Source of the DNA: a virus
Lineage: Duplodnaviria; Caudoviricetes
Direction: 5' to 3' (one strand)
Length of the DNA stretch: 64,000 nt
Virus record (IMG/VR): IMGVR_UViG_3300025674_000014
Positions 12,796 to 57,167 of this stretch are shown in pieces. The notes below the pieces were generated by a model, which was not told the origin of the DNA, searched no databases, and saw only the letters and a program-made list of their open reading frames with translations. Position 1 is the first letter of the stretch, and every line of letters starts with the position of its first letter. The position numbers and the translations under genes were made by a program.

Positions 12796-13923
12796 TTATT
12801 GTTTTGGAAGTAATTTATTTTTTAGTAAATAGTCGATAATTAATGGATTACCTACGCTGTTAAAAGCATCATTATATGCTTTATCGGGTGGTACCCCTTG
12901 TCTAAATTTATCAACAAAAATATCTAATATAATATTTGCCAGGTGAGCAGCAGTTGTAATAGGTTTTCTTCTTTTTAGAATATCACTATATTTTGGTATA
13001 CCGGCTGCTTCTTGCTCTCTTGTACTTGAAAGCCCTGTAAAATGACCAGTTTTAGGGTCAATAGATACAGATTGACCGAAAAGATTAGCAACTTGCTGAT
13101 TTAAATTAGTATCTTTATCTCTTGGATATATATAAGTGTTTCTATAGTTTTGTATAGCTCTTTGTTGTTCAATACCAGTTTTTTTATCATATATATCAAG
13201 TTTACCACCAGTACCTTTTATAAACTTACTAGCTGCAGCATAAGGGTTACCTGCTCCTGATCTAGCCCAGTTTTCTGCATTTCTAGCTGCAGTAGCAGCT
13301 TTTCCTAATAAACCTTGTTTACTAAATGGGTCTACAGCTTTAGCGCCATATTCTAATGCTTTACCTAAACCTTTAAAACCTTTTTTGACGAAATTTTTAA
13401 AAGTTGATGGTTGATTAACATTAGGTGTAGGTTGTTGCTGTTGTTGAACAGGTTGAACAGGTTGAGGAGCGGGTGCTGGTTGTGGTGCTGGTTGAGGTTG
13501 TGATGCTGGTGCTGGTGCTGGTGCTGGTAATTGGTTAGGATCTACTACTTCACCTTGTGTTAATTTTTTTCTTTCCGGATTTTCACCTGTACTTCTACCT
13601 GCGGGTTTTGCTCCATATAATGGATCTCCTGAATCAGGATCGGAATATGTAAACTTTACGCTTGGGTCCTGAGGTAAATCATCTTGTATATCGTCGCTTG
13701 AAAAAGATCTAGAATAAGTTTTAGAATCATTATCTTTATCTTCTATCTTTTGAAGTCTATTCCTAGGTTCAATTTCATTATTTTTTTTAAGTGAATTTTT
13801 ATCCTTATCCTTAAATTCGTCATCATCTTCTTTAGTAGGGCCAATATACTTTATTTCACTTAAAGTAACATATTTCTCAAATAAATTGTGAGAGTCTTTA
13901 TCCACGTAAATATTTAATCTCAA
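12796..13923 (-). CDS. hypothetical late protein with acidic region and Pro/Gln-rich linker
   Basis: Last gene of TAAATA-led operon; LFE/LSE propeptide-like N-terminus. Confidence 0.55.
   Translation of the reverse strand: MRLNIYVDKDSHNLFEKYVTLSEIKYIGPTKEDDDEFKDKDKNSLKKNNEIEPRNRLQKIEDKDNDSKTYSRSFSSDDIQDDLPQDPSVKFTYSDPDSGDPLYGAKPAGRSTGENPERKKLTQGEVVDPNQLPAPAPAPASQPQPAPQPAPAPQPVQPVQQQQQPTPNVNQPSTFKNFVKKGFKGLGKALEYGAKAVDPFSKQGLLGKAATAARNAENWARSGAGNPYAAASKFIKGTGGKLDIYDKKTGIEQQRAIQNYRNTYIYPRDKDTNLNQQVANLFGQSVSIDPKTGHFTGLSSTREQEAAGIPKYSDILKRRKPITTAAHLANIILDIFVDKFRQGVPPDKAYNDAFNSVGNPLIIDYLLKNKLLPKQ
13431..13528. repeat. coding low-complexity microrepeat (GCTGGT tandem; PA/PQ linker)
   Basis: gctggt x4 at 13505-13528 plus ggttga/gttgaaca variants. 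Confidence 0.7.
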
Positions 13924-14555
13924 TCACTGATAAAAATAGTATTACAATGATTCCAGTGAACAATCTTAAAGAAGTTATTAATCCATTCTCCTCTTTCTGG
14001 ACCGTTCATAAGATAATAAGCATGTTCCCATACATCGCAACCTAGTATAGGTTTACCAGCATTACTCATAAGGGGATTATCTTGATTAGGAGTATGTACT
14101 ACTTCCAACCTATTATCTTTTTTAACCAACCATACCCACCCTGATCCAAACTGGGACTTGCCAGATTCAACGAACTCGTTCCTAAAGTTATTGAAGGAAC
14201 CGAAAGTGCTTTTAATTGCTTTACCGAGCTCGGATTTACCTTCAAATGGAGTCCCTCCTGGATGCATGTATTTCCAGAAGAGTGAGTGATTGTAGTAACC
14301 ACCAGCATTGTCTCTAACTTTATCATCGTATTTCTTAATATTCTTAATTAACTCAACAATAGGTGGTTTTGGTTTATTACCTAAAGCTTCATTTAATTTT
14401 TTGATGTAACCCTTATAATGAACATTATAATGAAAGTTCATCGTTTGTCTATTAATTACTGGTGCTAAGTCCTTTAATCCATAGGAAAGTTTTTCAGCAT
14501 AGTATTTTGCTGTATTAGCTTCTAATAATTGATATACTTTAGACTCGTAACTCAT
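13920..14555 (-). CDS. sodA: Fe/Mn superoxide dismutase, Mn-type signature, with N-terminal extension
   Basis: HYNVHY, NAGGYYNHSLFW, FGSGWVWL, PNQD, DVWEHAYY. Confidence 0.92.
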   Translation of the reverse strand: MSYESKVYQLLEANTAKYYAEKLSYGLKDLAPVINRQTMNFHYNVHYKGYIKKLNEALGNKPKPPIVELIKNIKKYDDKVRDNAGGYYNHSLFWKYMHPGGTPFEGKSELGKAIKSTFGSFNNFRNEFVESGKSQFGSGWVWLVKKDNRLEVVHTPNQDNPLMSNAGKPILGCDVWEHAYYLMNGPERGEWINNFFKIVHWNHCNTIFISD

Positions 14556-15172
14556 TTCTTCTTACCACCCTTCATATTAGCACACCAATGGTACATCTTT
14601 CCTTTTTCACCACCGGCTTTTTTAGCTTTTGCTCTTAATGAAGTAACAGAGCCTTTACAACTAGCTCCTGATCTTTTTACTCTACCGGGTCTGCTTTTAC
14701 CTTTAACTTTACCATCGGCGTAATTTTCATGAACACTACCTTCTACTTTTTTAAGCTTAGAGTAATATTTTGGATCTTCAGCTAGGTGTTGTAAAGCAAT
14801 AGTTTTAGCTGCTTTATCACTTGTAGTGTGTTCCTTTTCAACTTTTATACCCATGGCTAATTCTTTAGGATCAGCTTTAATATGTGGTCTTGGTTTAAGT
14901 TGTTCGTTTATTTTTTTAAGCTGAATTTCAGTCTTATCTAAAACATCACCCTTTTTATATGTAGGACCATCATTTAAGACTTTATAACGTATAAATTTAC
15001 CAATTGTGTTATTAGGTTCTTTTAATTTAAAGACTTTTAATACTTTACCTTTACTACCGTAATGATCACATTCTTTGTTTGTGTTTAAACAAAGATCACC
15101 AGGACGAAGTTCATTAGCGTCTAAATCAGTCTTTTCTAAGATTTTATTAATCTTATCATTAAAGAGGCTCAT
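14552..15172 (-). CDS. basic modular head protein (contains DUF5661-like module)
   Basis: MGIKVEKEHT...IALQHL.EDPKYYSKL; K/R-rich C-terminal module with HWC. Confidence 0.6.
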   Translation of the reverse strand: MSLFNDKINKILEKTDLDANELRPGDLCLNTNKECDHYGSKGKVLKVFKLKEPNNTIGKFIRYKVLNDGPTYKKGDVLDKTEIQLKKINEQLKPRPHIKADPKELAMGIKVEKEHTTSDKAAKTIALQHLAEDPKYYSKLKKVEGSVHENYADGKVKGKSRPGRVKRSGASCKGSVTSLRAKAKKAGGEKGKMYHWCANMKGGKKK

Positions 15173-15177
15173 GCATA

Positions 15178-15183
15178 TATTTA
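15178..15183 (-). promoter_or_regulatory. gp55-type late promoter (15172-sodA-12796 operon)
   Basis: TAAATA, ATG 5 nt later. Confidence 0.7.
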
Positions 15184-21566: not shown

Positions 21567-21594
21567 AATTTAAGTTACTAAATTAAACTTTCAA
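21567..21594 (-). promoter_or_regulatory. early/middle-type promoter for 21561 glycan block
   Basis: TTGAAA-N16-TAAATT, ATG 5 nt later. Confidence 0.7.
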
Positions 21595-22332
21595 TGCTTT
21601 ATCCCAAAGTAGCAAATGTAACCTAGGACTAAAGTTAAAGTGATACTCTTTAGCAAGCTCAGCAACATCTGCTGCAACTCTAATATGTTCTTCACGACTA
21701 CCAGCACAAGGCATCAACCAAACACGACCAGTTGGTATATCAAACTTATCAACATACTCAGTCATAATTTCTTCCATATCACGGTGACTTTGTACTACAA
21801 ACTTAAACCCTGAATTATGCATTGTATGCCAATCGAGCACCTCTTCAATATAACGCTTGCCTTTAGGATCGCCATTTGACTTTAGTTTAGGTGAAGTAGT
21901 AAATGTAGCTTGGAACTCATCTATCCATCGATCTGAAGGATATATAGTTGCATTAGTTTCAAAATCGATACGAGGTACAAAACCCCACTCTTGTTTCAAG
22001 TAATCGATGAACTTAAGAAGTTTAGCTTGCTGGATAAGAGGTTCGCCACCAGTTAGTTTAAGAATAGCACCATTAAATAAATGATCTTTATAACCATTAT
22101 CTTCTAGCATACACCTAATATGGTAAAATGACATCTTATTCTTAATACTCCATGAAATATAACTATCACAACCATATGGTGCATCTTCAGACTTAAACCC
22201 AATACACGTTAGGTTACACATCGACATTCTCATAAACACCGATGGCATGCCTACATACTCACCTTCACCTTCTATAGTATAGAAAATTTTATCATCACTA
22301 AGAAATATAGTCTCATCCTTAAGTTCAATCAT
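21583..22332 (-). CDS. queE: 7-carboxy-7-deazaguanine synthase (radical SAM)
   Basis: FYTIEGEG...G.PSVF.R...CNL.C, LTGGEPL, ETN, SPKL, KFVV, LMP, FSPRLH..LW. Confidence 0.85.
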   Translation of the reverse strand: MIELKDETIFLSDDKIFYTIEGEGEYVGMPSVFMRMSMCNLTCIGFKSEDAPYGCDSYISWSIKNKMSFYHIRCMLEDNGYKDHLFNGAILKLTGGEPLIQQAKLLKFIDYLKQEWGFVPRIDFETNATIYPSDRWIDEFQATFTTSPKLKSNGDPKGKRYIEEVLDWHTMHNSGFKFVVQSHRDMEEIMTEYVDKFDIPTGRVWLMPCAGSREEHIRVAADVAELAKEYHFNFSPRLHLLLWDKALKV

Positions 22333-22338
22333 ATTATT

Positions 22339-22366
22339 ATTATAGTATAGACAACTAACTCTTCAA
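22339..22366 (-). promoter_or_regulatory. early/middle-type promoter for queE
   Basis: TTGAAG-N16-TATAAT, ATG 6 nt later. Confidence 0.8.
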
Positions 22367-22369
22367 GCA

Positions 22370-22375
22370 TAAATA
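22370..22375 (+). promoter_or_regulatory. gp55-type late promoter (phoH)
   Basis: TAAATA, ATG 7 nt later. Confidence 0.65.
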
Positions 22376-22382
22376 CTTGTAT

Positions 22383-23123
22383 ATGGGAAGAAAAAACTCG
22401 CGGTTAGCCGCAATTTTCGAACCGGAATCATTTAATACAAATGATTATGAACAACAAAATTGGGAACTAAACTTTAACATTAAGTCGAAGTTTAAATTTT
22501 CTGAAAAGCATCAAAGGTTTATACAAACCTTAATAGATGAAAAGACGAAAATGGTATTTGCAGATGGGTTTGCAGGTACAGCTAAAACATATTTGTCAGT
22601 TTATGGAGCATTGACATTATTAGAAGCGAGAAAGGTAGAGCAAATTATTTACCTGCGAAGTGTAGTTGAATCAGCTACGCAAAAGATTGGCCATTTGCCA
22701 GGTGAATTAGATCAAAAATTCCAACCTTATTCCTTACCATTAATAGACAAACTTGATGAGTTAGTTTCTAAGACCACTTCAGATAAATTAGTTAAACAAG
22801 AGTATATCAAATGTCTCCCTGTTAATTTCACAAGAGGTTTAACATTTCATAACTCCGTTGTTATAATTGATGAAGCACAAAATCTCACAAGGCAAGAGCT
22901 TGTTACTTTATTAACAAGATGCGGTGAAGAAACAAAGTATGTTATTATTGGTGATACTAACCAAAGTGACATTAACGGTAAATCAGGGTTTAAACCTATC
23001 TTACAGGCATTTGATACCGATAATAGTGTAGTTAACGGTATTCATACATTTAAGTTTGAAAAATCTGAAATTGTAAGAAGCAAGTTACTTAAACACATTG
23101 TTCAGGTATTGGAATCTGTTTGA
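22383..23123 (+). CDS. phoH: PhoH-like ATPase
   Basis: G.AGTAKT, IGHLPG...K, RG.TF....IIDEAQN, GD..QSD, IVRS; start moved to 22383 to match late promoter. Confidence 0.9.
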   Translation: MGRKNSRLAAIFEPESFNTNDYEQQNWELNFNIKSKFKFSEKHQRFIQTLIDEKTKMVFADGFAGTAKTYLSVYGALTLLEARKVEQIIYLRSVVESATQKIGHLPGELDQKFQPYSLPLIDKLDELVSKTTSDKLVKQEYIKCLPVNFTRGLTFHNSVVIIDEAQNLTRQELVTLLTRCGEETKYVIIGDTNQSDINGKSGFKPILQAFDTDNSVVNGIHTFKFEKSEIVRSKLLKHIVQVLESV

Positions 23124-23287
23124 TTCTTTTCCATCTCAAGTAACTCTTTAAGAGCCTCTTCAGGCGATATTGTTTTTATATCAGCCTGAAGAGGTATTTT
23201 TTCGTCTGGAGAAGGCTTTGATATCTCTGCCATTTTAGCAAAAACATCTTGCTGTAATTTATTAATTGTTGGATCTCTTTCTATCAT
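23102..23287 (-). CDS. hypothetical protein
   Basis: 61 aa; ATGA overlap with queD. Confidence 0.5.
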   Translation of the reverse strand: MIERDPTINKLQQDVFAKMAEISKPSPDEKIPLQADIKTISPEEALKELLEMEKNQTDSNT

Positions 23288-23967
23288 CTCATACTATCAC
23301 CACTCTTGGTAGACCAAGAAGTACCACCAAACATATCACCTAAACCTTGTGATACTTTATTTCCAACAGCTGCTGGAATAGAACCATCTGGGTTAATTTT
23401 CAACCCTTCTTTAGTATACTTAGTTTCATCTTTGATTGCTGGTGTATTTTCAGGTGTAATAGGTTGGAATTCATCTTTTTTAATTTCTTCTTTACTTTCT
23501 TCTTCCTTAAAGGTCATTTTCTGTACATGCTTATTAGTATATGTAGCACTATTGCTCTCATGTTCCCAAACTTCAACCTTTTCTACATCACACCTACCTT
23601 CAGTCATTGCTGATACATAGATACTTGCAATATCAAAACACTTCTTAGCAAACATTTCAATACCAACTCCATCATCAATACGAAGATCAATAACACCTTT
23701 ACGATTTAAATCATTAAAGTCATCAAGGAAAGGATCGTGCTTAGAAATAATAGTAGTATGATCGAAGTGTTGTTGTAGTTTTTCTTTTAGCCCTTTAAGG
23801 CCACCAAAATCTACAACCCAGTTATTTTCATCTAGTTCATTACAACTAAACCAAAATTTAGCAGTTAACCTATAACCGTGAAGAAATCTACAATGTGACT
23901 TAGCTTGAGGTTGACGAAACGCACAGCTACCAAGTTCAATTACTTTAGTACTTTCAAAATTAGCCAT
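23284..23967 (-). CDS. queD: 6-carboxy-5,6,7,8-tetrahydropterin synthase with C-terminal extension
   Basis: SHCRFLHGY, VVDFG, DH, E.FA, V.VWEH..N.A. Confidence 0.85.
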   Translation of the reverse strand: MANFESTKVIELGSCAFRQPQAKSHCRFLHGYRLTAKFWFSCNELDENNWVVDFGGLKGLKEKLQQHFDHTTIISKHDPFLDDFNDLNRKGVIDLRIDDGVGIEMFAKKCFDIASIYVSAMTEGRCDVEKVEVWEHESNSATYTNKHVQKMTFKEEESKEEIKKDEFQPITPENTPAIKDETKYTKEGLKINPDGSIPAAVGNKVSQGLGDMFGGTSWSTKSGDSMR

Positions 23968-23972
23968 ACCTT

Positions 23973-24000
23973 ATACTAAGATATGTTCCGTTTCTTTCAA
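23973..24000 (-). promoter_or_regulatory. early/middle-type promoter for queD
   Basis: TTGAAA-N16-TAGTAT, ATG 5 nt later. Confidence 0.75.
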
Positions 24001-24302
24001 CTCTTTTTCTTTTTAAACGGTCTAGGACACTTAGTTCCTTTAACATGGGTATGACCACATCTACCGCAATAAGTAGCTTTTTTAGCCTCTAATAAAGCAT
24101 CTTTACTAATATATTGTGAGGCTATTTCATCCATTTTAGATTTACCAGCTTGGTTAAGAGCTATAGCTACTGCTTGTTTCTGAGCTTTATTTTTAGAAGA
24201 AGGTTTACTAGTACCTATTTTACCTTTTTTCTTATAGGATCCCATAAGCTCACTAATGTTATCACCTATAATCTTGTCTGTTTTACCTTTCTTAAGCGGC
24301 AT
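23997..24302 (-). CDS. small basic protein with C-terminal CxxC-H-C knuckle
   Basis: MPLKKG...NISELM...QAVAIAL..AG; [14 protein letters not shown]. Confidence 0.55.
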
Positions 24303-24741
24303 TTTTTAATACTTTCTTATATAATGTAGTTAAATCTTTATCCGATAGACCACTTTGTTTTAGATATACTTCAATATCTTCAATATCGTTAGTATTCTTT
24401 ATTTGTTCCATAACTTTATTATCTAATTGTTTAGATAATTTTTTAGCAATAAACTTCTTAAACATTTTTACAGCTCCTGGTTTATTAGGTGTTATTACTG
24501 GTTTCTTTACACTAAAAATACCTGGCATTGAACCACCTGGCATTAAAACTTTTAGCAAAGGAGGTATACCACCGACCATTGGTCCACCACAAGCCTCGTT
24601 TGTAAGTTCATGTAAAACAAACCCTTCATAACTTTCACTCTCTTCAAAGCCCTGATTAAGAGTTGGATCTACTTTGAACCTAATATACCTTAACCCTTTG
24701 CTCTTTAAGCACTCGGTTAATATACTGTCAAAGTCTTTCAT
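24292..24741 (-). CDS. hypothetical late protein
   Basis: TAAATA promoter; [11 protein letters not shown]-terminus. Confidence 0.55.
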
Positions 24742-24748
24742 ACATTAG

Positions 24749-24754
24749 TATTTA
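24749..24754 (-). promoter_or_regulatory. gp55-type late promoter
   Basis: TAAATA, ATG 7 nt later. Confidence 0.7.
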
Positions 24755-25819
24755 ATCAGATTTGTAATTGATTACGTCAAGTAGGGTTGTATAAAATGGT
24801 TTCTTACTGTTACCATGATAACAAGGTTCACCTTCATGACCGTGATTCCAGTTATCGAACCAAAATAGATTATAACCATGAATTTGAGATATAATACTAT
24901 AATAAGGTTCCTCAGTAAACGGAACTAAATCATGTTCATCAGTAAACCTGTTAAATATTTTCATATATAAAGGTAGTATAACATTATCTAGTTCTTCAAA
25001 TTTACCTCCAAAGAAAGTACCTACTGTCCAGGCAGGGTATTCCTGATTAACATCAGGTGCATTTACACAAGTTTTTATATTGAAAATCTTTTTGTTTGGA
25101 TTATCATTACCCCACCTTCTATTACCTACTTCCCAATCAAATAGTTCTTTAAATATTAAACTTGTTTTTACACCGAAATCTTCCCAATCAGCTTCTGATA
25201 ATCTATCGTTTTGTTGATCTTGGGTGATAAAAAACCAATCTTTATCTTCAAATATACGTTTTATACCGTCAGTAATTTTTTCGTTAAAAATATTATTTTT
25301 ATTTTCAGGCCAAAAATGTGAATCAGGGTATTGTTCGTCAAGTTGGTGTGGGTATACATATTCTGCACCACCTAATGATAAAGGAATTTTACACCATTCA
25401 GATACACCAGCATCAATCCAAAAAACCCTATCACAACCCCATGGGTTATCTTTTGCCATACTACACCATTTTAACTTCCAATGGCAAAGTAATTCATTTC
25501 TTGGTGCATAAATCATTTTACGTTTATTACCTTCATGATCTACATCGTGCCAAATAAATTTGTTTTTAGTTTCTAAAATTTCATATGATCTTGGCCATTC
25601 AAATAAATCTAAACCAATAACTTGAAAATCTTTCCAAAAAGGTTTTAACCATTCGGTTATTTGATCAACCATATGAGGCCAGCAATATAATTGCATTGGC
25701 ATATTAAGCTTAGATAAATTTTTTAAGGAACCTACATATAAAGCCTCGTCATTATCCTTACCACCCATTACCCAATCGGATCTACCATTGTAAACACATG
25801 TAACTAAAACCGGTTTCAT
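24752..25819 (-). CDS. HtrL/YibB (WlaTC-like) glycosyltransferase-like protein
   Basis: LVT.VY, K...C...NP.....FWIDAG, G.FFGG, TEE; paralogue at 43281. Confidence 0.55.
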   Translation of the reverse strand: MKPVLVTCVYNGRSDWVMGGKDNDEALYVGSLKNLSKLNMPMQLYCWPHMVDQITEWLKPFWKDFQVIGLDLFEWPRSYEILETKNKFIWHDVDHEGNKRKMIYAPRNELLCHWKLKWCSMAKDNPWGCDRVFWIDAGVSEWCKIPLSLGGAEYVYPHQLDEQYPDSHFWPENKNNIFNEKITDGIKRIFEDKDWFFITQDQQNDRLSEADWEDFGVKTSLIFKELFDWEVGNRRWGNDNPNKKIFNIKTCVNAPDVNQEYPAWTVGTFFGGKFEELDNVILPLYMKIFNRFTDEHDLVPFTEEPYYSIISQIHGYNLFWFDNWNHGHEGEPCYHGNSKKPFYTTLLDVINYKSD

Positions 25820-26400
25820 ATCATTTCGTATTTTAAAAACTCAAAATCCTCTTTATAATAATTGTTTAAAAGATCTAATGTTTCTCTTTTTATCTCACTA
25901 ACTAACTCAGATGTATTTATACTACTCTTATTCTCATGAGGTAAACTTGGAGAGAAATTGTTTGAAGTTGCTAGTAACTCAAAATCTTCCTTTAAATTTT
26001 CAAATCTTAATATCTGACTATAAACTATATTGTTATTAAAATATCTCTTTTGTGGTAAATTATGGTCTGTTATAGCTAAAGGAATTCTGGTAACAAAATT
26101 ATGAAATTTATCTGGTGTAAATTCACCCTCTCTATATATAAACTCAGATATCATTTTTGTATAAGGGTTTCTTACTATGGTAAATTTTTTACTGTTTTTG
26201 TACAATTCTGGGTAATGTTGTTCAATTAAATCTGGAGTAAAATGCTGAGGAGCAAATATTATATTGTTATAACGTTCTTCAGTATAGGTAAAACATTCAT
26301 CTCTATTTTGTTTATCTATTCCAAACTTCTTTTCAATTGAAGAACCACCGGTTTTAGGTATATGTACAAATAGTAAGTTGTAATCTAAAAGGAATGGCAT
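25816..26400 (-). CDS. sulfotransferase family 2
   Basis: FVHIPKTGGSS (5'-PSB), FTIVRNPY..MISEF (3'-PB), RFENL.EDF, Y.EDF..L.Y. Confidence 0.8.
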   Translation of the reverse strand: MPFLLDYNLLFVHIPKTGGSSIEKKFGIDKQNRDECFTYTEERYNNIIFAPQHFTPDLIEQHYPELYKNSKKFTIVRNPYTKMISEFIYREGEFTPDKFHNFVTRIPLAITDHNLPQKRYFNNNIVYSQILRFENLKEDFELLATSNNFSPSLPHENKSSINTSELVSEIKRETLDLLNNYYKEDFEFLKYEMI

Positions 26401-26406
26401 TAAGTT

Positions 26407-26412
26407 TATTTA
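26407..26412 (-). promoter_or_regulatory. gp55-type late promoter (sulfotransferase-HtrL operon)
   Basis: TAAATA, ATG 6 nt later. Confidence 0.7.
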
Positions 26413-26417
26413 AACAG

Positions 26418-26445
26418 TTGAACCTAAAAGTAAATATCCTATTAT
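26418..26445 (+). promoter_or_regulatory. early/middle-type promoter for folE
   Basis: TTGAAC-N16-TATTAT, ATG 6 nt later. Confidence 0.8.
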
Positions 26446-26451
26446 TTTAGT

Positions 26452-27108
26452 ATGACTGACGAACAGAGAGTAAAAGAATTTGTACTACCGACGGCTAATA
26501 GTTCGGTAGCATTGACAGATGAACAGCAAAGCATTGTTATTGAAAATGCTGCTAAAGCTTATGAAGCATTCCTAGATGCACTTGGTTTTGATTGGCGTAA
26601 AGACCCTAATAGTGATAATACACCGCATCGTGTAGCTAAGTCTTTCGTTAAAGATCTTATTGCAGGTTGTTATAATGCACCTCCAAAAGTTACTTCGTTT
26701 CCATCTGATGGTTACGATGGTATAGTTGCTCAGACTAATATTCCCGTTAAAAGTCTCTGCAGTCATCATCATCTTGCGTTCACCGGTCGAGCGCATGTTG
26801 CATACATACCTTCACTAGAAGGGCGTGTTATTGGTCTGAGTAAACTAAACCGTATTGTCGAATATTATGCTCGTCGTCCTCAAATTCAGGAAGGTATGAC
26901 AATGCAAATTCATAAAGCTATTGATAAGGTTTGTGAATTGAATAAAGGTGTTGCTGTAGTTATTAAAGCTACCCATACTTGTGCATGTCTTAGGGGTGTT
27001 AAGCATGATGGTTGTTCGATGGTTACTTCTAAACTATCAAAAGACTTTATGGATGATGTTAAGACTCGTAAAGAGTTTTATGACTTTATCCGTATGGCTG
27101 AGTCTTGA
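26452..27108 (+). CDS. folE: GTP cyclohydrolase I
   Basis: TP.RVAK, SLCSHHHL.F.G, GLSKL.R.V....RRPQIQE, H.C...RG, R.EF. Confidence 0.95.
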   Translation: MTDEQRVKEFVLPTANSSVALTDEQQSIVIENAAKAYEAFLDALGFDWRKDPNSDNTPHRVAKSFVKDLIAGCYNAPPKVTSFPSDGYDGIVAQTNIPVKSLCSHHHLAFTGRAHVAYIPSLEGRVIGLSKLNRIVEYYARRPQIQEGMTMQIHKAIDKVCELNKGVAVVIKATHTCACLRGVKHDGCSMVTSKLSKDFMDDVKTRKEFYDFIRMAES

Positions 27109-27137: not shown

Positions 27138-27695
27138 GTGGCTAAGAAAAGTACAGATGATTTAGGTTTTGAAAAGGCTATACTTAAAGTATGTAGTTTA
27201 AGAGAAAAAAATCTTTATGGTCCTGCTTCTAAAGCCGCGGACGATCCTGAAACCGGTATTGTTATTAAACAAAAACCGGCCTTCTTTGTTATTAAGGACT
27301 GTGCTACTATTGCTAAACGATATATGTTTATCATGTGTTACGGTTCCTTAACTGATCCAATTGGGCAACTAAAAGGTAAAGTAAGTGTTGAGGATATTGA
27401 GAATTTTGTATCTAGAAGTCGTAATAAAGCTAATTATGAAACTCGTCAATTACTCAACCTTATTTTTTCTGATATTAATAGTTATATACCTGGTTTAAGA
27501 GAAACTGGTGCTGATGAGTTAGATATTAACTTTGATACTATTGATGAAGAAAATGTATACGGTGATTACGAAGATTTAGGTAATGAACGTATTAAAGAAA
27601 TGGAAAAACAACAGGAGATTCAAAAATCCAAAATCGATTTGAATAATGATCAAGCTGTTGTTGATAAATTAGTTGAAGTATTTGTACTAGACTAA
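27138..27695 (+). CDS. hypothetical protein
   Basis: GTG start 5 nt after TAAATA; acidic C-terminal half. Confidence 0.55.
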   Translation: MAKKSTDDLGFEKAILKVCSLREKNLYGPASKAADDPETGIVIKQKPAFFVIKDCATIAKRYMFIMCYGSLTDPIGQLKGKVSVEDIENFVSRSRNKANYETRQLLNLIFSDINSYIPGLRETGADELDINFDTIDEENVYGDYEDLGNERIKEMEKQQEIQKSKIDLNNDQAVVDKLVEVFVLD

Positions 27696-28129
27696 ACTTC
27701 TTCCTTATCTACATCGATAAGTTTATCAATTTTTGATACAAAATCTTTTCCAACAAGTACTGGGTACTCATTTTCTGATCTATCAGCTATAGAAAAAGGA
27801 ACGTCTTTATATTTTTTACCGTCAAATACAATATCGAATAAAACCACAGGTCTTTCTTCTTTATTACCTGAACCAATATGTATAACAACGGTATCTACTA
27901 CTTGCTTTTTAAGTTTTTTGTTGTTAACGGTACCTATAATAATATTATCACCGCGTTTACTTAATATATCACCGTGTAATACGTTATAAGCTCCATTACC
28001 TGAATCTACTTTAGCTTCAACATCACCTACTGAATCAATAGTAATAGGTTCAACTAAGCCGATAACATCATTATCGGCTATTTCGTTTAAAAAGTAGTTT
28101 CTATATATTGTATTAAACCCTTTATTCAT
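27692..28129 (-). CDS. retropepsin-like peptidase (RimK-associated/Zn_protease-like)
   Basis: AKVDSGNG (D-S/T-G), ERPVV, YPVLVGKDF; likely start 28129. Confidence 0.7.
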   Translation of the reverse strand: MNKGFNTIYRNYFLNEIADNDVIGLVEPITIDSVGDVEAKVDSGNGAYNVLHGDILSKRGDNIIIGTVNNKKLKKQVVDTVVIHIGSGNKEERPVVLFDIVFDGKKYKDVPFSIADRSENEYPVLVGKDFVSKIDKLIDVDKEEV

Positions 28130-28372: not shown

Positions 28373-28380
28373 ATATGTAC

Positions 28381-29136
28381 ATGAAGAAACTTATTTTTTC
28401 TGTATTATTGGCTGCCGTTACTACTGCTGGTAACGCGCAGGTTAGTGTTGATGCAGGCTATACCTCTGATTTTACAATCGCTGGTACAGCAAGAGCAAAG
28501 GACACAGCTGTCATTGGAATCACGGGGGCAAAGGCTTTAGGAAAAGGATTTACTCTTTACGGGTTTAATTACTTCTTGCCAACAAATGACGGACGTTCTA
28601 AATCTTATACTGATCATCCAGGTTCGGGTCATCAGCATGTAGATGGTATTAAGAATGCTCTTGAAACTAGTAGTCAAAACCATTTTGGTGTTGGACTTGC
28701 TTATGACGTTAATTCACTCGGTGATTTTTCTTTCACCGCTGACGTTCAAGCTGTTTATCACTTGGTAAACGGTCCTCTTCAGGATTCTTTCCAGTATGGA
28801 ATTGGTGCAACATTTGATAGCCTTCCTTTAATTAGTAAGGTTGCAAGTGTTTCTGTTTACTACATGGAAGATATTGATCTTGAAATGGATGGTTTTCAGA
28901 TTGGTTTGAGTAGAGTCTTTGAAAACGTGTTAGTTGATAACGTTAATTTGACTCCTAAGGCCGGTGTCTATTTGTTTGATAGTTTTGATGCTTATTATGC
29001 TTCATTGAGAGCTGATTATACTAAGTATGCTATCAGACCTTATGTTCAGGTAAGTTATTTTGATAACGACTTGACTGGAGATCTTGCACTTGACAATGAT
29101 GTTCAGTATACGGTCGGTCTTAACTATTCCTTCTAA
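28381..29136 (+). CDS. outer membrane beta-barrel protein (TIGR02001/porin-like)
   Basis: Signal peptide MKKLIFSVLLAAVTTAGNA|Q; alternating amphipathic strands; C-terminal YTVGLNYSF BAM-type signal. Confidence 0.75.
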   Translation: MKKLIFSVLLAAVTTAGNAQVSVDAGYTSDFTIAGTARAKDTAVIGITGAKALGKGFTLYGFNYFLPTNDGRSKSYTDHPGSGHQHVDGIKNALETSSQNHFGVGLAYDVNSLGDFSFTADVQAVYHLVNGPLQDSFQYGIGATFDSLPLISKVASVSVYYMEDIDLEMDGFQIGLSRVFENVLVDNVNLTPKAGVYLFDSFDAYYASLRADYTKYAIRPYVQVSYFDNDLTGDLALDNDVQYTVGLNYSF

Positions 29137-29156: not shown

Positions 29157-29182
29157 AAAGCCCGCTTCGGCGGGCTTTTTTT
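29157..29182 (+). terminator. rho-independent terminator (cUUCGg loop), between convergent genes
   Basis: aaagcccgc-ttcg-gcgggc-ttttttt. Confidence 0.92.
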
Positions 29183-30590: not shown

Positions 30591-30593
30591 ATA

Positions 30594-30949: not shown

Positions 30950-30954
30950 ATTAT

Positions 30955-30960
30955 TATTTA
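30955..30960 (-). promoter_or_regulatory. gp55-type late promoter
   Basis: TAAATA, ATG 5 nt later. Confidence 0.7.
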
Positions 30961-39287: not shown

Positions 39288-39817
39288 TGAATAAACCTAA
39301 ACTAATTTTGTTTGATGTAGATGGTGTGTTAACAGACGGTAAAGCTACTTATGATAGTGTGAGTTATGTTGGATATAAACAATATAACTATAAAGATATA
39401 ACTGCATTAAGACGGTTTAAAAAGGAACTAGATATTGATGTTGCTCTTTTTACAGGCAGTAAGGAAATAAATCAAGCTTATGCTAAAAGTAAAAAGGTGA
39501 AATGTTATTATGTTAACCCTAATATAACTAACAAAGTAGAAAAACTAATTCACATTTGTAATTTAGATAGCATTAAACCTTCTCAAGTTGGTTATGTTGG
39601 TGATGATTACCAAGATTATGAAATTATGAAAGCAGTTGGGTTTAAATACTGTCCGTGTGATGCAATTTACGACATTAGAAATATTAAAGATGTAAATGTA
39701 TTACCTATACGTGGCGGTGAAGGTGTAGCTGACTGCGTTTTTTCAACAATTAAATACAAATTAAAGGATGATGAATATTGTAATTCCAATGGCAGGAAAA
39801 AGTTCTTCTTTTTCTAA
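39287..39817 (+). CDS. KdsC-like HAD (C0) phosphatase
   Basis: FDVDGVLTDG, D, K, YVGDD..D..IM..VG...CP.DA, GG.GV. Confidence 0.8.
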   Translation: MNKPKLILFDVDGVLTDGKATYDSVSYVGYKQYNYKDITALRRFKKELDIDVALFTGSKEINQAYAKSKKVKCYYVNPNITNKVEKLIHICNLDSIKPSQVGYVGDDYQDYEIMKAVGFKYCPCDAIYDIRNIKDVNVLPIRGGEGVADCVFSTIKYKLKDDEYCNSNGRKKFFFF

Positions 39818-49278: not shown

Positions 49279-51867
49279 ATGTATAGAAATGTAGTGTATG
49301 AATCTGTTAAGGAACAAATGCGGTTGTTTACCTGGGACGAGGATGGTAACCGTATTCAAGTTACTCAAAGCTACAATCCATATCTTTATATTGAACCTAA
49401 GGATAATAGACATAAGAATGCTGAGTCTATCTACAAAACCCCTTTACGTAAACTAATATTCAAACGTGGTTCTGATCGTCGACGTTTTATCAAACAGAAT
49501 AACGTTAAGAGGTTGTTTGAAAACCTACCTGAAAAGCAACAGTTCTTATTAGATAACTTCTGGCAAGTAAATGAAACTTCAGACTTTACTAAGAATGAGA
49601 TCAAGATGTTATTGCTTGATATCGAGACTTATTCACCAGATAGCTTTCCTAATATCGAAAATGCTAATCACCCGATTAACGTTATTACCGTTTATGATAA
49701 TCTTGAGAAACGGTTTTATACCTGGGGTACTAAACCATATAACGGTAAAGGTAGGCCTGATCTTGAGTACAAATACTGTGTAAGTGAACGTCAACTGTTT
49801 ACTGAGTTTCTTAACTACCTTGAGAAAGACTATCCTGATATTCTAAGTGGTTGGAACTCTGAGTTCTTCGATATTCCATATATTATCAAACGTTGTGAAC
49901 GTATTATGGGTGAGGAAGAGATGAAAAGACTATCACCGGTGGGTAACGTTCATTATAGAAGTATTCAAGGTCAGTTCGGTAGACAACAAATCAAATGGTA
50001 CATTGATGGTATTGCATTGCTTGATTACTTGGACGTGTATCGTAAGTTTGCTCCATTGCGTGAGTCATATAAACTTGATGCAATTGGTGAACTTGAGTTA
50101 AATGAACGTAAGGTTGGGTTTGAAGGCATGGACCTTGCAACGTTATCTGATGTTGATTGGGACAAGTTTATTGATTACAACATTCAGGACGTAAACATTC
50201 TTGTTAAACTTGAAGAAAAGTTACAATACATTGGTTTGGTACGTATGTTAGCTTACGTTGGTTGTACTACCTTTGATGCTGCAATGGGTGCACTATCAGT
50301 AATCAATGGTGCGTTTTGTATTCGTGCTAGACATCGTAAGCAAGTCATTCCTACTTTTATTCGTGGTGAAGATACCGGTAAGAACCCAGGTGCATATGTT
50401 GGTGAACCTCAACAAGGGTTTCAAAACTATGTACTATCCTTTGACGCTAATAGTCTATACCCGAATGTGATGATTACCCTTAACTTATCACCAGAAACTA
50501 AGATTGGTAAGATCTTAGAAAAAACTGATGACATGATAGTTATGGAACTAGTTAACGGTAAAGTTAAAGAATACTCAATACCGGTGTTTAGTAAAATGAT
50601 TAAGGAACATAATCTTACAATCAGTAAAGCTAACATTGTATTCCATCAGAAAGAAATGGGTCTTATTCCTGAAATTGTTGATTACTATTATCATAAACGT
50701 AAAGGATTTAAAGATGAGTATGTTGACTTGAAGAAGCAGCATGCTGCTATGAAAAAGTCAGACCCAGACTATGATAAAGTCGGGGTTGAACTACAACGTG
50801 CTGGTACTAAACAATTAACAGTAAAGATTCTAATCAATTCGATTTATGGATACTTTGGTAACAAGAACGCTCCTATTGGTGATGACGATATTGCATCATC
50901 AGTTACATTGAGTGGTCAAGCAGTGATTAAACAAAGTAACGTAATCATTAGAGACTTTATCAAACTAAAGACAGGACTAACTGATGAAGATCTTAAGAAG
51001 AAAGACCCTATTATTTACAACGACACGGATTCATCATATGCCTCGATTGAGTTACTTATCAAACATCTGGGACTTACCTTCAAAAATGAAAAAGGAGAAG
51101 TACATGAGGACATTTATAAACTTGAAGATGAGTTGGTTGGATACCTGAATAAGGAAATCATGATATGGGGTAAGAAGACGTTCAATAGTAAAGACTGTAG
51201 ATTCGTTTTCAAGCGTGAGTGTATTGGTGAAGTTGGTATCTTCTTACAGAAAAAACGTTACGTTCTAAACATCCTTGATGATGAAGGTGCAAAGGTTAAC
51301 AAGACGAAATACACTGGGGTAGAAGTTGTTAGAACTACCTTGCCTAACTCGTTGAAACCGTATATGAAAAACGTTATTGAGATCATGCTTAGTACCCAGG
51401 ATTATCAAAAGACTAATGAAGCAATGAAAATCGTGTATGATAAGTTTAAGGAACTAAGTATATCAGAAATTGCATCTGTCATGGGCATTAAGGGATATGA
51501 AAAGTATGCTGCTCAATGTAACGGTATGAGTGTTGTAAAAGGTATGCCTATACATTGTAAGGCTGCCTATTACTATAATAACTTACTTAAAGCTAATAAA
51601 CTTGGTAAGAAGTATGAATCAATCGGTTCTGGCGACAAGGTTAGGTTCTTTTATGTAAAGAAACCAAATAAGTACAACATCGATAGTATCGCGTTTAAGT
51701 ATGAGTGGCCTGAAGAGTTTGATAAGTTCTTTAAACCTGATTATGATAAGATTTTTGAGAAGTTAATCTTTCAACCTATCGAACGTTTTTATCAAGCAGT
51801 TAGTTGGAAGTGTTATTTACCTAATCAAGCAGTGCAGTGTGATTTGTTTAGTCTATTAGGAGAATAA
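49279..51867 (+). CDS. 43: family B DNA polymerase gp43
   Basis: DIET, GWNSEFFDIPY, YNIQDV, SFDANSLYP, K.LINS.YG, YNDTDS, KKRY. Confidence 0.97.
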   Translation: MYRNVVYESVKEQMRLFTWDEDGNRIQVTQSYNPYLYIEPKDNRHKNAESIYKTPLRKLIFKRGSDRRRFIKQNNVKRLFENLPEKQQFLLDNFWQVNETSDFTKNEIKMLLLDIETYSPDSFPNIENANHPINVITVYDNLEKRFYTWGTKPYNGKGRPDLEYKYCVSERQLFTEFLNYLEKDYPDILSGWNSEFFDIPYIIKRCERIMGEEEMKRLSPVGNVHYRSIQGQFGRQQIKWYIDGIALLDYLDVYRKFAPLRESYKLDAIGELELNERKVGFEGMDLATLSDVDWDKFIDYNIQDVNILVKLEEKLQYIGLVRMLAYVGCTTFDAAMGALSVINGAFCIRARHRKQVIPTFIRGEDTGKNPGAYVGEPQQGFQNYVLSFDANSLYPNVMITLNLSPETKIGKILEKTDDMIVMELVNGKVKEYSIPVFSKMIKEHNLTISKANIVFHQKEMGLIPEIVDYYYHKRKGFKDEYVDLKKQHAAMKKSDPDYDKVGVELQRAGTKQLTVKILINSIYGYFGNKNAPIGDDDIASSVTLSGQAVIKQSNVIIRDFIKLKTGLTDEDLKKKDPIIYNDTDSSYASIELLIKHLGLTFKNEKGEVHEDIYKLEDELVGYLNKEIMIWGKKTFNSKDCRFVFKRECIGEVGIFLQKKRYVLNILDDEGAKVNKTKYTGVEVVRTTLPNSLKPYMKNVIEIMLSTQDYQKTNEAMKIVYDKFKELSISEIASVMGIKGYEKYAAQCNGMSVVKGMPIHCKAAYYYNNLLKANKLGKKYESIGSGDKVRFFYVKKPNKYNIDSIAFKYEWPEEFDKFFKPDYDKIFEKLIFQPIERFYQAVSWKCYLPNQAVQCDLFSLLGE

Positions 51868-54167: not shown

Positions 54168-55769
54168 ATGGCTAACATCGCAATCTACGGCTCGCATAAT
54201 GGCGCTATTGCCTTGGAAAATAACGGTGAATATCACGTTATTGAATTTGAACGTTTTTTTAATGTAAAAAATATTGGTCTAGCACAATACAAGCCTCTTC
54301 GTTATAGAGAAGAAGCTGTTTATGCAATGTTAGACTACATTGATAAGGAACTAGGATTTAAAGCTCCTTTCGATAACATGATTCACATTAATACTGAATG
54401 TGTTCATGACGATATTACTTACAGTTACAAGGATTATATTCCTGCTAAGAACGTTTATGAAGGTTGGCACCATCATGCACATGCAAGTGGATCCTTCTAT
54501 CAATCTGATTTTAAACAGGCCTTAATTTTTAGTTTCGACGGCGGTGGTAATGATGGTTTTTTCAACATCTTTTTAGCCGATAGAAAAAATGGTGTTACAT
54601 ATCTTGATAAAACCAACCCCGCCGATCGAACTAAATACGACTTCGACTTTGGGTTCCCATATATGTGTTTTGCACACTTTTGCAAAGACATTAAACAGGA
54701 ATGGATTTCAGATGGTAACCTAGTATACAGTGGTAAGATCATGGGACTCTGTAACTTTGGTAAGAGCAGAGATGAATGGTTACCTCACTTTAAGAAATTT
54801 TATTATGCTAAACCAGATGGTGAAAATTATATTAGATTCTTAAAAGAGTATATTGGAGATCCTTGTGGTTTGGTGTTTGATGAAAACAATAGACTTGAAG
54901 GTCAGTTAAGTTGGGACGTTGCAGCTACATCTCAAAAGGCTTTTGAAGAGTGCTTTTATGAAGTAGCTAAGCCTTATTTAGACAAATATGAGTTACCTAT
55001 TATTATTACTGGTGGGTGTGGTCTTAACATATTACTTAGCACTGATCTACGGCAGCGTTATCCTGAACGGGGTGTCTTCGTGGCTCCTAACACTAATGAT
55101 TGTGGAATTGCTGTTGGGTTATTGGCCGGTTTTAATAAACCCGATACTCCTATTGATATTACATACGGTGGTACGGAACTAATCGATAAAAATACATACC
55201 CTGCTTGGATTGAAAGTAACGTTGCCAAGCCAGTTACATTTAATGCTATTGTTAGTGAACTATGTAGTGGTAAAATCTTTGGAGTTGCAAGAGGTAGGTG
55301 TGAACACGGCCCTAGAGCTCTTGGTAACAGGTCAATTATCTGTAACCCAGCCTTCCCTGAGATGAAAGATATTCTTAACCATAAAGTTAAGCATAGGGAA
55401 TGGTACAGACCATTTGCCCCGGTATGTAGACTAGAAGATGCGTCTAAGTACTTTGAATGGGAAGGAGAATCAAGGCACATGTTATATTGTCCAAGGGTAA
55501 GACCTGAATGGCAAGATAAGCTTTCATCTATTACCCATATTGATGGTACTGCAAGACTTCAAACAGTAACAAGAGAACAAAATGAATGGTTATATGACCT
55601 TCTTACTGAGTTTGAAAAGAAAGCAGGTCATGGGGTTCTTCTCAATACTTCATTTAATATTGCAGGTAAACCAATTCTCAATACTATTGCCGATGCTATG
55701 TGGGTGTTAGAACACTCACAAATGGATTATCTCATTATTGAAGATTTTTACTATGGTAAACATTGGTAA
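54168..55769 (+). CDS. NodU/CmcH-family carbamoyltransferase
   Basis: SHN, E.ERF...K, HH.AHA..SF, DGGG, GKIMGL, GG..LN, P..ND.G, G..E.GPRALGNRSI, K.RE.YRPFAP, DGT.R.QTV, LNTSFN. Confidence 0.92.
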   Translation: MANIAIYGSHNGAIALENNGEYHVIEFERFFNVKNIGLAQYKPLRYREEAVYAMLDYIDKELGFKAPFDNMIHINTECVHDDITYSYKDYIPAKNVYEGWHHHAHASGSFYQSDFKQALIFSFDGGGNDGFFNIFLADRKNGVTYLDKTNPADRTKYDFDFGFPYMCFAHFCKDIKQEWISDGNLVYSGKIMGLCNFGKSRDEWLPHFKKFYYAKPDGENYIRFLKEYIGDPCGLVFDENNRLEGQLSWDVAATSQKAFEECFYEVAKPYLDKYELPIIITGGCGLNILLSTDLRQRYPERGVFVAPNTNDCGIAVGLLAGFNKPDTPIDITYGGTELIDKNTYPAWIESNVAKPVTFNAIVSELCSGKIFGVARGRCEHGPRALGNRSIICNPAFPEMKDILNHKVKHREWYRPFAPVCRLEDASKYFEWEGESRHMLYCPRVRPEWQDKLSSITHIDGTARLQTVTREQNEWLYDLLTEFEKKAGHGVLLNTSFNIAGKPILNTIADAMWVLEHSQMDYLIIEDFYYGKHW

Positions 55770-55781
55770 TAGTTCTATAAT
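55754..55781 (+). promoter_or_regulatory. early/middle-type promoter for queC
   Basis: TGGTAA-N16-TATAAT, ATG 7 nt later. Confidence 0.7.
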
Positions 55782-55788
55782 ATAGCAT

Positions 55789-56586
55789 ATGAGTGAAAGA
55801 AAACTACGTAGAGCTGTAATGCCATTTAGTGGTGGTATGGATAGTGCTGTTATGCTTAACATGGCTCAAACAGCACATGATGAATTATATTGTATTACTT
55901 TTGATTACGGTCAACGTCATAAGCGTGAGATCGAATGTGCTAAAACTCAAATTGAACATAATGAAGTAAGGTCATTTAGTCACTCGTTTGAGTTTCATCG
56001 TATCTATCATAAGATTATCGATGTGTCATTTATTAAGGAACTTGCAACTACTAGTTCACTTACTAATACTGATATTGATAACCCTGATGTTAAAGATATG
56101 GTTGGTGAAGCTCAACCAGCTAGTTATGTACCTTTTAGGAACCAGTTGTTTCTAAGTATTGCATGTGCTTATGCTGAGTCTATTGGTGCTGATACCGTAT
56201 ATCATGGTGCAACCCAAGTTGATAGTCTTGCTGGTTACTGGGATGGTAGTCCTGAATTCCAAGATAGTTTTAATAAACTGATTAGTCTTAATAGACAAAA
56301 TCAAATTGTAGTTAAATGTCCATTGATTAACCTTAGCAAGAAAGACATTATTCTATCTGGTATTAGTAACAGGGTAGATTTTGGTGAAACATATACGTGT
56401 TATAGTGGTGATGAAATTGCTGATGCAACTACACCAAGTAGTGCACTACGTATTAAGGGTTTTTGTGATGCTGGTTATATTGACCCTCAACCATATAAGC
56501 AAGATCTTACATCATTATGGGAAGAGCATGACTGTAAGCCATGCCCTACTGGGTTCTTTTTACAAAAAGGAGGTACTAGAGGTTAA
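55789..56586 (+). CDS. queC: 7-cyano-7-deazaguanine synthase QueC, degenerate Zn site
   Basis: FSGGMDS, F.YGQRH..E, SSLT, YVPFRN..FLS.A, Y.D....F, P....SK..I, TY.CY. Confidence 0.88.
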   Translation: MSERKLRRAVMPFSGGMDSAVMLNMAQTAHDELYCITFDYGQRHKREIECAKTQIEHNEVRSFSHSFEFHRIYHKIIDVSFIKELATTSSLTNTDIDNPDVKDMVGEAQPASYVPFRNQLFLSIACAYAESIGADTVYHGATQVDSLAGYWDGSPEFQDSFNKLISLNRQNQIVVKCPLINLSKKDIILSGISNRVDFGETYTCYSGDEIADATTPSSALRIKGFCDAGYIDPQPYKQDLTSLWEEHDCKPCPTGFFLQKGGTRG

Positions 56587-57167
56587 TAGTCCTCTAAATC
56601 GTCGTCCTGATATTCGGACATATCATCATCAGGGCGATCATCAATTTCATCATACTCCGTGTCCATAGAAGCGGTGGGATCAACATAATCAGCAGTAGTT
56701 GGTTCCACCGCTTCGCCACCTTTAATGTTAATTTCGTCTAAGTAACCATCAGCTATCATTCCACCTAAAAGTACTTCTGCTTCCTTTTTATCCATTCCTG
56801 TTTTAGTAAGGAACTCCATTATGTCTTTAGCTTTTGCTGAATCGTCTGCTTCAACATATCTTACAACATCACGTTGAGCTGTGTTTAATCTTTCTTCGTA
56901 CGATTTATCAGCAACTTTAAATTCTCTATTACCAAGTTTAACCTTATTACTGGTTTTTTCTTTTCGTTGTCTTGTTGCTCTTGATCTTACACCAGAACCT
57001 TTACCTTTTAACCTCATCATCATTTCATAATAAGACTCTTTTCTTTCTTCACCGGTGTCAGGATCTACGACAGTTTTACGTTCTCTATCTTTGTATTGTT
57101 TTTTACGCCCTTCTTCAATGGACTGCATATACGATTCAAATAGAAATTGATTTTCTCTGTCTTTCAT
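56583..57167 (-). CDS. hypothetical late protein (basic N-half, acidic C-tail)
   Basis: TAAATA 6 nt upstream; MKDRENQFLFESYMQSIEEG. Confidence 0.6.
   Translation of the reverse strand: MKDRENQFLFESYMQSIEEGRKKQYKDRERKTVVDPDTGEERKESYYEMMMRLKGKGSGVRSRATRQRKEKTSNKVKLGNREFKVADKSYEERLNTAQRDVVRYVEADDSAKAKDIMEFLTKTGMDKKEAEVLLGGMIADGYLDEINIKGGEAVEPTTADYVDPTASMDTEYDEIDDRPDDDMSEYQDDDLEDY

Follow-up and report, generated by a model that had tools for sequence, protein, structure and literature searches.

In phage T4, L/I-x-E is the site after which the prohead protease gp21 cuts, and a 10-residue N-terminal segment of the internal protein IPIII suffices for packaging into the head (PMC9026906). In this capsid targeting sequence (CTS), MKTYQEFIAE, positions 4 and 7 serve targeting, and positions 8 and 10 serve processing (PMC9026906, PMC8442874). 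The T4 internal proteins are highly basic (PMC8442874). Propeptides of head and inner-body proteins are also cut by diverged gp21 homologs in phiKZ, 201phi2-1 and SPN3US, in phiKZ after S/A-x-E and otherwise after a comparable short motif with Glu at its end (PMC9026906). In 201phi2-1, 19 head proteins are processed after Glu, and the number in phiKZ is similar; such giant-phage propeptides often have redundant sites, and their cargo includes ejected proteins (PMC9026906). Here we describe N-terminal leaders, probably of the T4 CTS type, on 15 predicted late proteins of an uncultured ocean phage. They are encoded in a 64-kb stretch of the IMG/VR record IMGVR_UViG_3300025674_000014 (64,000 nucleotides, 31% G+C), which we call the window.

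Judging from its genes (gp15, T4 portal, gp23 and gp43), this phage is a T4-type myovirus. The replication proteins in the window are T4-type, and the closest cultured phages to its gp43-like polymerase (49279-51867) are cyanomyoviruses, with an identity of only ~32%. The window has no match to cultured phages at the nucleotide level, and megablast and tblastn searches with the leader proteins gave no useful match among cultured phages. IMG/VR contains many uncultured relatives. Those used here are the fragments G002 and G005 (polymerase identity 80-81%), the larger G003 (127 kb) and G004 (105 kb), which have ~51% polymerase identity and synteny with the window genes from 21.5 to 63 kb, and G001, a more distant relative of 185 kb that is 98%-complete.

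The leaders resemble the T4 CTS in several respects. They are N-terminal, are about 10 residues long and have aromatic or hydrophobic residues followed by aliphatic-x-Glu. They occur on late proteins with unrelated mature parts, and several of the cargo proteins in the window are small and very basic. Examples of similar sequences are MKFEQELIFE in the window, and MKTFRQFLIE, MKSFKQYVIE and MVTFKQFFYE in relatives. Moreover, syntenic relatives of the phage encode a Peptidase_S77. However, there are at least 15 carriers in 64 kb, compared with four in all of T4. The predicted cargo in the window includes a Mn/Fe superoxide dismutase (SOD), a protein with a fold like that of T4 RNA ligase 2 (Rnl2), a HIGH-motif nucleotidyltransferase (NTase) and a retropepsin-like protein. 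The leaders also vary in length, and several have two sites.

The window leaders differ from those of phiKZ at P3, where they have an aliphatic or aromatic residue like T4 and no Ser/Ala/Gly; nor is the phage itself phiKZ-like. P3 is Leu, Ile, Phe or Val in 15/15 leaders, all of which end in [L/I/F/V]-x-E (phi-x-E below). With no small residue at P3 in any of them, the leaders do not fit the phiKZ type of propeptide (S/A-x-E). A further parallel concerns the SOD. The Cu/Zn SOD A245R of chlorovirus PBCV-1 is expressed late and packaged in virions, and a role in lowering superoxide at an early stage of infection has been suggested for it (PMC7019647). The SOD of the window is also a late viral SOD, whose packaging is a prediction. 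Unlike this Mn/Fe enzyme, A245R is a Cu/Zn enzyme of a eukaryotic giant virus and has no known cleavable targeting leader.

We consider it probable that the leaders are a T4 CTS-type propeptide system that has expanded in number and to ordinary enzymes. The leader-bearing proteins would be made late, and an amphipathic, aromatic-rich leader would carry each of them into the scaffolding core of the assembling prohead. A gp21-type (Peptidase_S77) prohead protease would cut after the Glu of phi-x-E, with some leaders offering two cut sites 7-10 residues apart, and the released mature protein would remain in the head with the DNA. We infer these steps of targeting, gp21 cleavage and head retention. 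The predicted cargo consists of small, very basic proteins like the T4 internal proteins, the Mn/Fe-SOD, the Rnl2-like enzyme, the HIGH nucleotidyltransferase and the retropepsin-like protein. Ejection into the host, by analogy with the T4 internal proteins and Alt, is a weaker proposal, to which we give slightly less than an even chance. It is also tentative, and perhaps a little less probable than its opposite, that this lineage, one of abundant marine T4-like phages, loads a large, enzyme-rich set through interchangeable CTS-type leaders, with 15 in the window and probably >25 genome-wide.

The 15 genes are as follows (a slash marks a predicted cut, and box positions are relative to the start codon).

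12796-13905, minus strand: Pro/Gln-rich protein; leader MDKDSHNLFE/KYVTLSE/I, GTG start.
13920-14555, minus strand: Mn/Fe superoxide dismutase; leader MSYESKVYQLLE/ANT...
14552-15172, minus strand: basic protein containing DUF5661 (Pfam); leader MSLFNDKINKILE/K, TAAATA at -11.
24292-24741, minus strand: 149-aa basic protein; 10-residue leader followed by C, TAAATA at -13.
27692-28129, minus strand: protein with a Pfam match to PF05618 (retropepsin-like 'Zn_protease'); leader MNKGFNTIYRNYFLNE/I.
30594-30851, minus strand: 85-aa very basic protein, downstream in the 31427 late operon; leader MTFKQFYE/A.
30961-31140, minus strand: 59-aa basic protein; long leader ...ILNLLSE/D, with the Glu at residue 22.
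31125-31427, minus strand: 100-aa basic protein, mature pI 10.8; leader MDFDALCDFLTE/D, TATAAATA at -11.
31450-31977, plus strand: 175-aa acidic protein; leader MNKDEKSLQELYE/A, TATAAATA at -11.
31974-32585, minus strand: HIGH-motif nucleotidyltransferase (PF01467); leader MTAFKWFFIKE/QTG, TAAATA at -12.
33872-35188, minus strand: RNA-ligase (Rnl2)-like protein; two-site leader MKFEQELIFE/AYNNTVLNE/GGAAGHM...
36776-37141, minus strand: 121-aa acidic, Pro-rich protein; leader ...KYKMLEE/Q.
37138-37641, minus strand: 167-aa protein; leader MKFDQAIKE/G, TAAATAAATA at -15/-11.
38650-38859, minus strand: 69-aa basic Gly-rich protein, mature pI 10.7; leader MSTFKNIFLKLLDE/D, TATAAATA at -12.
56583-57167, minus strand: 194-aa protein; two-site leader MKDRENQFLFE/SYMQSIEE/G, TAAATA at -12.

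A first-pass annotation of the bare sequence had proposed that about 15 late proteins share such a leader. All the N-termini that it cited are present in the genes concerned, and all 15 are at least plausible, although one start had to be corrected and 30961-31140 is weak. The corrected gene is the open reading frame 12796-13923, which has no ATG near its 5′ end. Given a TAAATA at -11 from GTG 13905, this codon is most likely the start, rather than TTG 13923. It lies 15 nt after the SOD stop codon, and the encoded protein has a long, low-complexity, Pro/Gln-rich centre. The case at 30961-31140 is the weakest of the set, with a weak DUF5872 match, a mature pI of 10.5 and no ortholog found in G002-G005.

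The mature parts of the carriers are unrelated: they comprise SOD, DUF5661, PF05618, PF01467 and the Rnl2-like fold, as well as small basic and acidic or Pro-rich proteins. Searches of PHROGs and Pfam with the cargo proteins mostly gave no informative name. Once cut at the predicted site, five small leader proteins (14552-15172, 30594-30851, 30961-31140, 31125-31427 and 38650-38859) would have a pI of 9.8-10.8 and would thus be very basic. The first of these, at pI 9.8, is encoded by the first gene of the SOD operon, and 30594-30851 has a mature pI of 10.5. Predicted mature N-termini after the Glu include GGAAGHMYHPFD..., ANTAKYYAEK..., QTGRKIVLFPGSF... and ASDNLHQWFK...

Ten of the 15 leader genes lie at 30.6-38.9 kb, adjoining a segE-like GIY-YIG gene. 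This gene encodes a homing endonuclease (38241-38657, Pfam E=3.5e-34), and its insertion site is flanked on both sides by late genes that bear leaders. No orthologs of the genes at 29181-31427 were found in G002-G005, which fits the fast turnover of the internal-protein loci of T-even phages (PMC3012670).

In the orthologs that were found, the site is largely kept. The ortholog of 14552-15172 in G005 starts MMTRFQLRCNELLE/H. The leader of 24292-24741 fits the T4-derived pattern of an aromatic residue at 4, hydrophobic residues at 7 and 8, and Glu at 10, and [LI]-x-E is retained in four orthologs (ILTE, ILAE, LIE and LIE). Where the window has FLNE in 27692-28129, the orthologs have IINE/I, IVNE/I, LFIE/Q..GLFE/G and FFYE/Q..GLTE/G. 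The gene 36776-37141, whose start overlaps the stop of the late gene 37138-37641, has [LI]-x-E/Q before the Pro-rich part in four orthologs; the sites of this series are LEE, LKE, LQE, LNE and INE, with Gln and a Pro-rich tract after each. The gene 37138-37641 is itself the first gene of the late operon that includes the ligase-like gene, and its G005 ortholog starts MKFDQAINE/G. Both G003_81 and G004_19, the orthologs of 31450-31977, also have leaders, and the G002 ortholog of 56583-57167 starts MKDQDTQFLYE/SYQKTIIE/G. Orthologs of 38650-38859 start MKSFKQYVIE/M and ...KTFFYE/M, and the site series is LDE, SEE, VIE and FYE, plus one ortholog with Asp.

In this last ortholog (G002 59053-59613, L100), the Glu expected at P1 is replaced by Asp (...ALLLDD). 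The equivalent change in T4, an Asp at CTS position 10, stops processing, but not targeting. By analogy, the G002 protein may be packaged uncut.

The enzymes show most clearly that the leaders are separable from the proteins that bear them. The ligase-like protein (438 aa) has its best fold matches to Rnl2. Its AlphaFold2 model has a mean pLDDT of 83, with residues 25-385 above 90, and residues 1-24 are low. Among its best 120 homologs, 76 are leaderless and start MGGAAGHMxHP, and 41 have leaders of 4-25 residues. These leaders differ greatly in sequence (MKFEQELIFEAYNNTVLNE, MNTFKQYYNTVLNE, MNNFKSYFLTE, MINFKEYFDVILE, MDTKLVRSLIKSLITE, MKKHLSE and MLLKE are examples), but 41/41 end in phi-x-E directly before GGAA. 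Since the leader ends where GGAA starts, the predicted mature ligase-like protein equals the leaderless homolog minus its Met.

In most homologs (76/120 best), the ligase-like protein and the NTase are one fused protein of 630-700 aa. The G001 fusion (159088-161811, L082-L083) has 907 aa and starts MKKKLLLE/G. Such fused proteins, in G001 and most homologs, have one leader or none. In the window, the two genes are split (31974-35188) and separated by an unrelated 431-aa gene, and both proteins start with a leader of their own. This enzyme pair is uncharacterised and is widespread in marine phage contigs.

The SOD is 15 residues longer than solved SODs. Its Pfam Sod_Fe_N match begins at residue 18, and alignments with solved SODs start between its residues 16 and 22 and between residues 1 and 7 of the solved proteins. 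In 78 of its best 120 homologs, phi-x-E occurs 7-13 residues before the LPY start, with leader ends such as ...LLLE/Q, ...LILE/K, ...IILE/Q and ...LVLE/G. Cellular SODs start MAFELP or MSFKLP, or carry signal peptides. A 221.7-kb contig showing synteny with the window encodes one of these leader-bearing SODs.

A similar boundary is seen in the NTase. The PF01467 match begins at residue 19, and the alignment to PPAT 3nd5 begins at residue 15. Its standalone homologs (11/11) start ...[TK]FKxFFx[KR]E, 8-9 residues ahead of the first strand, FPGSF. More generally, the aliphatic P3 and the Glu at P1 are kept in orthologs at ~51% polymerase identity, and other leader residues vary. It is therefore well supported at the level of sequence comparison that the leaders are discrete, portable N-terminal modules that would end in a gp21-type (phi-x-E) site.

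Leader length ranges from 8 to 22 residues. There are at least two sequence classes, namely xTFKxFFxxE and MDxDxKxxxE[AK]Y; the second includes 12796-13905 and also G003_60 and G004_40. Many leaders have a conserved E-[A/S/N/K]-Y at the first Glu and another phi-x-E 7-10 residues downstream, as in FE/AYNNTVLNE/GG, FE/SYMQSIEE/G and FE/KYVTLSE/I. The targeting helix may thus extend over ~20 residues, and the second site may be where the last cut is made. It is this second site that matches the leaderless start in the ligase-like family. At least four G001 proteins (98382, 102502, 103410 and 169337) share a leader peculiar to that genome, MKxLxE-NWRK[YF] with another phi-x-E after it, and therefore the leader grammar differs between lineages. 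G001 (L075-L084) also uses Shine-Dalgarno sites, unlike the window.

In the window, start codons mostly lie 5-7 nt after a promoter-like box and there is no Shine-Dalgarno sequence, such that most mRNAs would be leaderless or nearly so. The box is TATAAT at early-type genes and TAAATA, often TATAAATA, at late-type genes. Divergent late promoters share very short common intergenic spacers, e.g. 31428-31449, 38860-38888 and 57168-57183. TAAATA occurs 11-13 nt ahead of the start codon in nine of the 15 leader genes (12796-13905, 14552-15172, 24292-24741, 31125-31427, 31450-31977, 31974-32585, 37138-37641, 38650-38859 and 56583-57167). The other six (13920-14555, 27692-28129, 30594-30851, 30961-31140, 33872-35188 and 36776-37141) are downstream in same-strand operons, mostly with overlaps of 4-16 nt. 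The structural genes of G003 and G004 carry the same TAAATA box. At the sequence level, then, the leader genes appear to be expressed late, together with head genes.

The association with late promoters, which the first-pass annotation had asserted, holds in a scan of the window. We used a loose rule, namely [L/I/F]-x-E ending at residues 6-17, and defined the late class as the 14 genes with TAAATA starting 9-17 nt before ATG, leaving 66 others. The loose motif occurs in 10/14 TAAATA genes versus 15/66 others (Fisher p=0.00082). When residues 2-25 of the late proteins were shuffled, a mean of 3.1 had the motif, compared with the 10 observed (P=0.0002). Motif density at residues 6-17 is 6.5% per position in late proteins and 2.0% in others, and falls to 1.2-1.9% deeper in the sequences.

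The leaders are also aromatic-rich, as had been claimed: residues 2-12 contain on average 2.07 F/Y/W, and those of other proteins 1.06 (p=0.0004). Position 3 or 4 is aromatic in 7/14 late genes and 11/66 others. The pattern had been said to be missing from early and replication genes. Of these, 1/6 early-type (TATAAT) genes and 3/24 genes of the plus-strand replication block match.

A position-specific scoring matrix (PSSM) trained on 23 leaders from G003 and G004 only gave an independent ranking. The top six window N-termini are those of 56583-57167 (the highest score, 15.6), 30594-30851 (second, 11.2), 31450-31977 (10.3), 33872-35188, the SOD and 38650-38859. All six are among the examples cited previously.

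The proposed protease is found in relatives. G003, G004 (L089:4457-5131) and G001 encode a Peptidase_S77 (gp21-type) protease. In G003 and G004 this protein starts MALRLLVE/T or MPLRLLVE/T, compared with MNEPQLLIE/T in T4 gp21. Their scaffold protein is rich in phi-x-E, as is T4 gp22, and begins MAKDIKAILKE/ATQDLLSE/E (MLKE/QLIAE/A in T4 gp22), and their gp23 has ...WCVNE/ANVAGG before the conserved mature region, where T4 has ...FLTE/AEIGG. The window has no head module. T4 gp15 (PF16724) and T4 portal (PF07230) genes lie just past the window start, as seen in near-identical contigs. Based on the T4-type core genes and the synteny with relatives, we infer that the window's own genome also encodes an S77 protease.

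Several observations weigh against the proposed packaging system. No S77 match occurs within 10 kb past the portal in the near-identical contigs, where gp15, portal and fibre-like genes are located, and none was found in the closest long fragments (G002 and G005-G010), none of which span the head region. The nearest cultured phages are distant. Many ligase-like homologs work without any leader, and therefore packaging is not intrinsic to this enzyme. Residues past the Glu are conserved (E-[ASNK]-Y in the window and E-NWRKY in G001), so the first Glu may be inside a longer functional helix, which makes the cut site uncertain. The motif is short and degenerate: the loose rule matches ~20% of unrelated proteins, and ~3 of the 14 late genes are expected to fit it by chance. 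Finally, the strict T4 spacing (aromatic 4, hydrophobic 7 and 8, Glu 10) is present in only 2/15 leaders, although several leaders of relatives have it, and a regular expression for it shows no significant enrichment (2 window hits, P=0.11). We therefore do not claim that most leaders match the T4 determinants exactly.

The degeneracy of the motif also bears on the earlier claim that it predicts the injected proteome from sequence alone, which is too strong. Given the ~20% of chance matches, cargo cannot be predicted from so degenerate a motif by itself, and prediction also needs a late promoter or operon context, ortholog conservation or a leader/leaderless boundary. Two proteins that fit the loose rule were rejected as cargo. 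One is PhoH (22383-23123), whose site is not kept in the G003 and G004 orthologs, and the other is a 301-aa late protein (10081-10986) with no sign of a separable N-terminal module.

Of the alternatives, the one that survives best is that the leaders are uncleaved N-terminal amphipathic helices, which function in oligomerisation, in docking to a membrane or phage structure or in translation control, the Glu being just a part of the helix. The conserved residues beyond the Glu suit this idea, and with start codons 5-7 nt after the box, the 5′ coding sequence could be constrained. However, leaderless late genes have the same promoter-to-ATG spacing; these are tail/baseplate-type genes in G003 and G004, and metabolic enzymes in the window (sulfotransferase, carbamoyltransferase and a nucleotidyltransferase at 39768-40496). 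Therefore, the motif is not an mRNA constraint. Similar leader peptides in the window also have different codons, e.g. ATGAAATTTGAA versus ATGAAGTTCGAC, and the leader codons of 37138-37641 are unlike those of the similar MKFEQ leader at 35188, which implies that selection acts on the peptide. On these two grounds, we reject an mRNA-constraint explanation. An uncleaved helix also leaves unexplained why the module end equals the leaderless start, always at phi-x-E, in three unrelated enzyme families, and why the leaders resemble the experimentally defined T4 CTS. Overall, we regard uncleaved helices as unlikely.

Another possibility is that the leaders are cleavable propeptides, but with another protease or another destination (tail, baseplate or envelope), or that the proteins are expelled from the prohead and not injected. 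Most T4 scaffold fragments do exit the head after cleavage (PMC9026906). Candidates for another protease are the retropepsin-like protein 27692-28129 and a putative trypsin-like protease beside the portal, a 453-aa gene two genes before the portal in near-identical contigs with no Pfam family on record; the former, the PF05618 protein, itself has a leader. Yet a cut after Glu with an aliphatic P3 is a gp21-type signature, and is neither trypsin-like nor retropepsin-like, and the S77 protease, scaffold and gp23 of relatives carry the same kind of site. Regarding the destination, the tail/baseplate-type late proteins of relatives have no leaders, and we think it improbable that this whole alternative applies. 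A CTS-type system remains the reading that we prefer.

The last alternative is that chance, or the composition of an AT-rich genome with much Leu, Ile, Phe, Lys and Glu, produces the pattern. It could account for single weak members such as 30961-31140, as seems true of the PhoH-like match, and for some of the 15/66 other proteins and the ~3/14 late proteins noted above, but it is very improbable, and for the whole set it is refuted by the shuffle control and the ligase-like and SOD homolog boundaries, in line with the positional enrichment, which is 3-4-fold and limited to residues 6-17 of late proteins, the recovery of examples by a cross-genome PSSM and the retention of the site across hundreds of homologs.

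We know of no published account of CTS-type leaders on enzymes in marine T4-like phages. If the proposed system is real, then enzymes including the SOD and an RNA-repair-type pair would enter together with the DNA and be active before phage gene expression. If the leaders work as in T4, sequence would suffice to reveal the proteins that an uncultivable ocean phage carries in its capsid. The predicted cargo list is unexpected, with an antioxidant enzyme, an RNA-ligase-type enzyme and its NTase partner, a protease-like protein and DNA-binding-like basic proteins. It points to pre-made functions at infection, such as protection from oxidative stress, nucleic-acid repair or modification, and counter-defence. 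The comparison used here asks whether an optional leader has a protease site at its end and stops where leaderless homologs start. It is a general computational test for cargo and, if the proposed system is real, would let packaged proteomes be read from metagenomes. The leaders are also candidate short tags for loading foreign proteins into the capsids of non-model phages.

We now note other features of the window. No tRNA genes were found in its 64 kb. The region 3580-10053, adjoining the gp15-portal region, is dense in glycosyltransferase-like genes (GT2/GT7C, GT10 and GT11 families) and also contains pyrophosphatase and DUF366 genes; the Pfam families for this region come from a near-identical contig (L193). 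Genes of the 7-deazaguanine/queuosine type are dispersed at 21583-27108 and 54168-57795. These genes, and others among them, include the following.

22383-23123: PhoH, among queuosine-type genes.
23284-23967: PTPS/QueD-like protein.
25816-26400: sulfotransferase, among queuosine-type genes.
26452-27108: GTP cyclohydrolase I.
54168-55769: carbamoyltransferase, among queuosine-type genes.

The product of the plus-strand gene 28375-29136 has a classical signal peptide (MYMKKLIFSVLLAAVTTAGNAQ) and may be a phage-made envelope or outer-membrane protein. It has diverged strongly from its G002 and G005 orthologs, to 26-31% identity.

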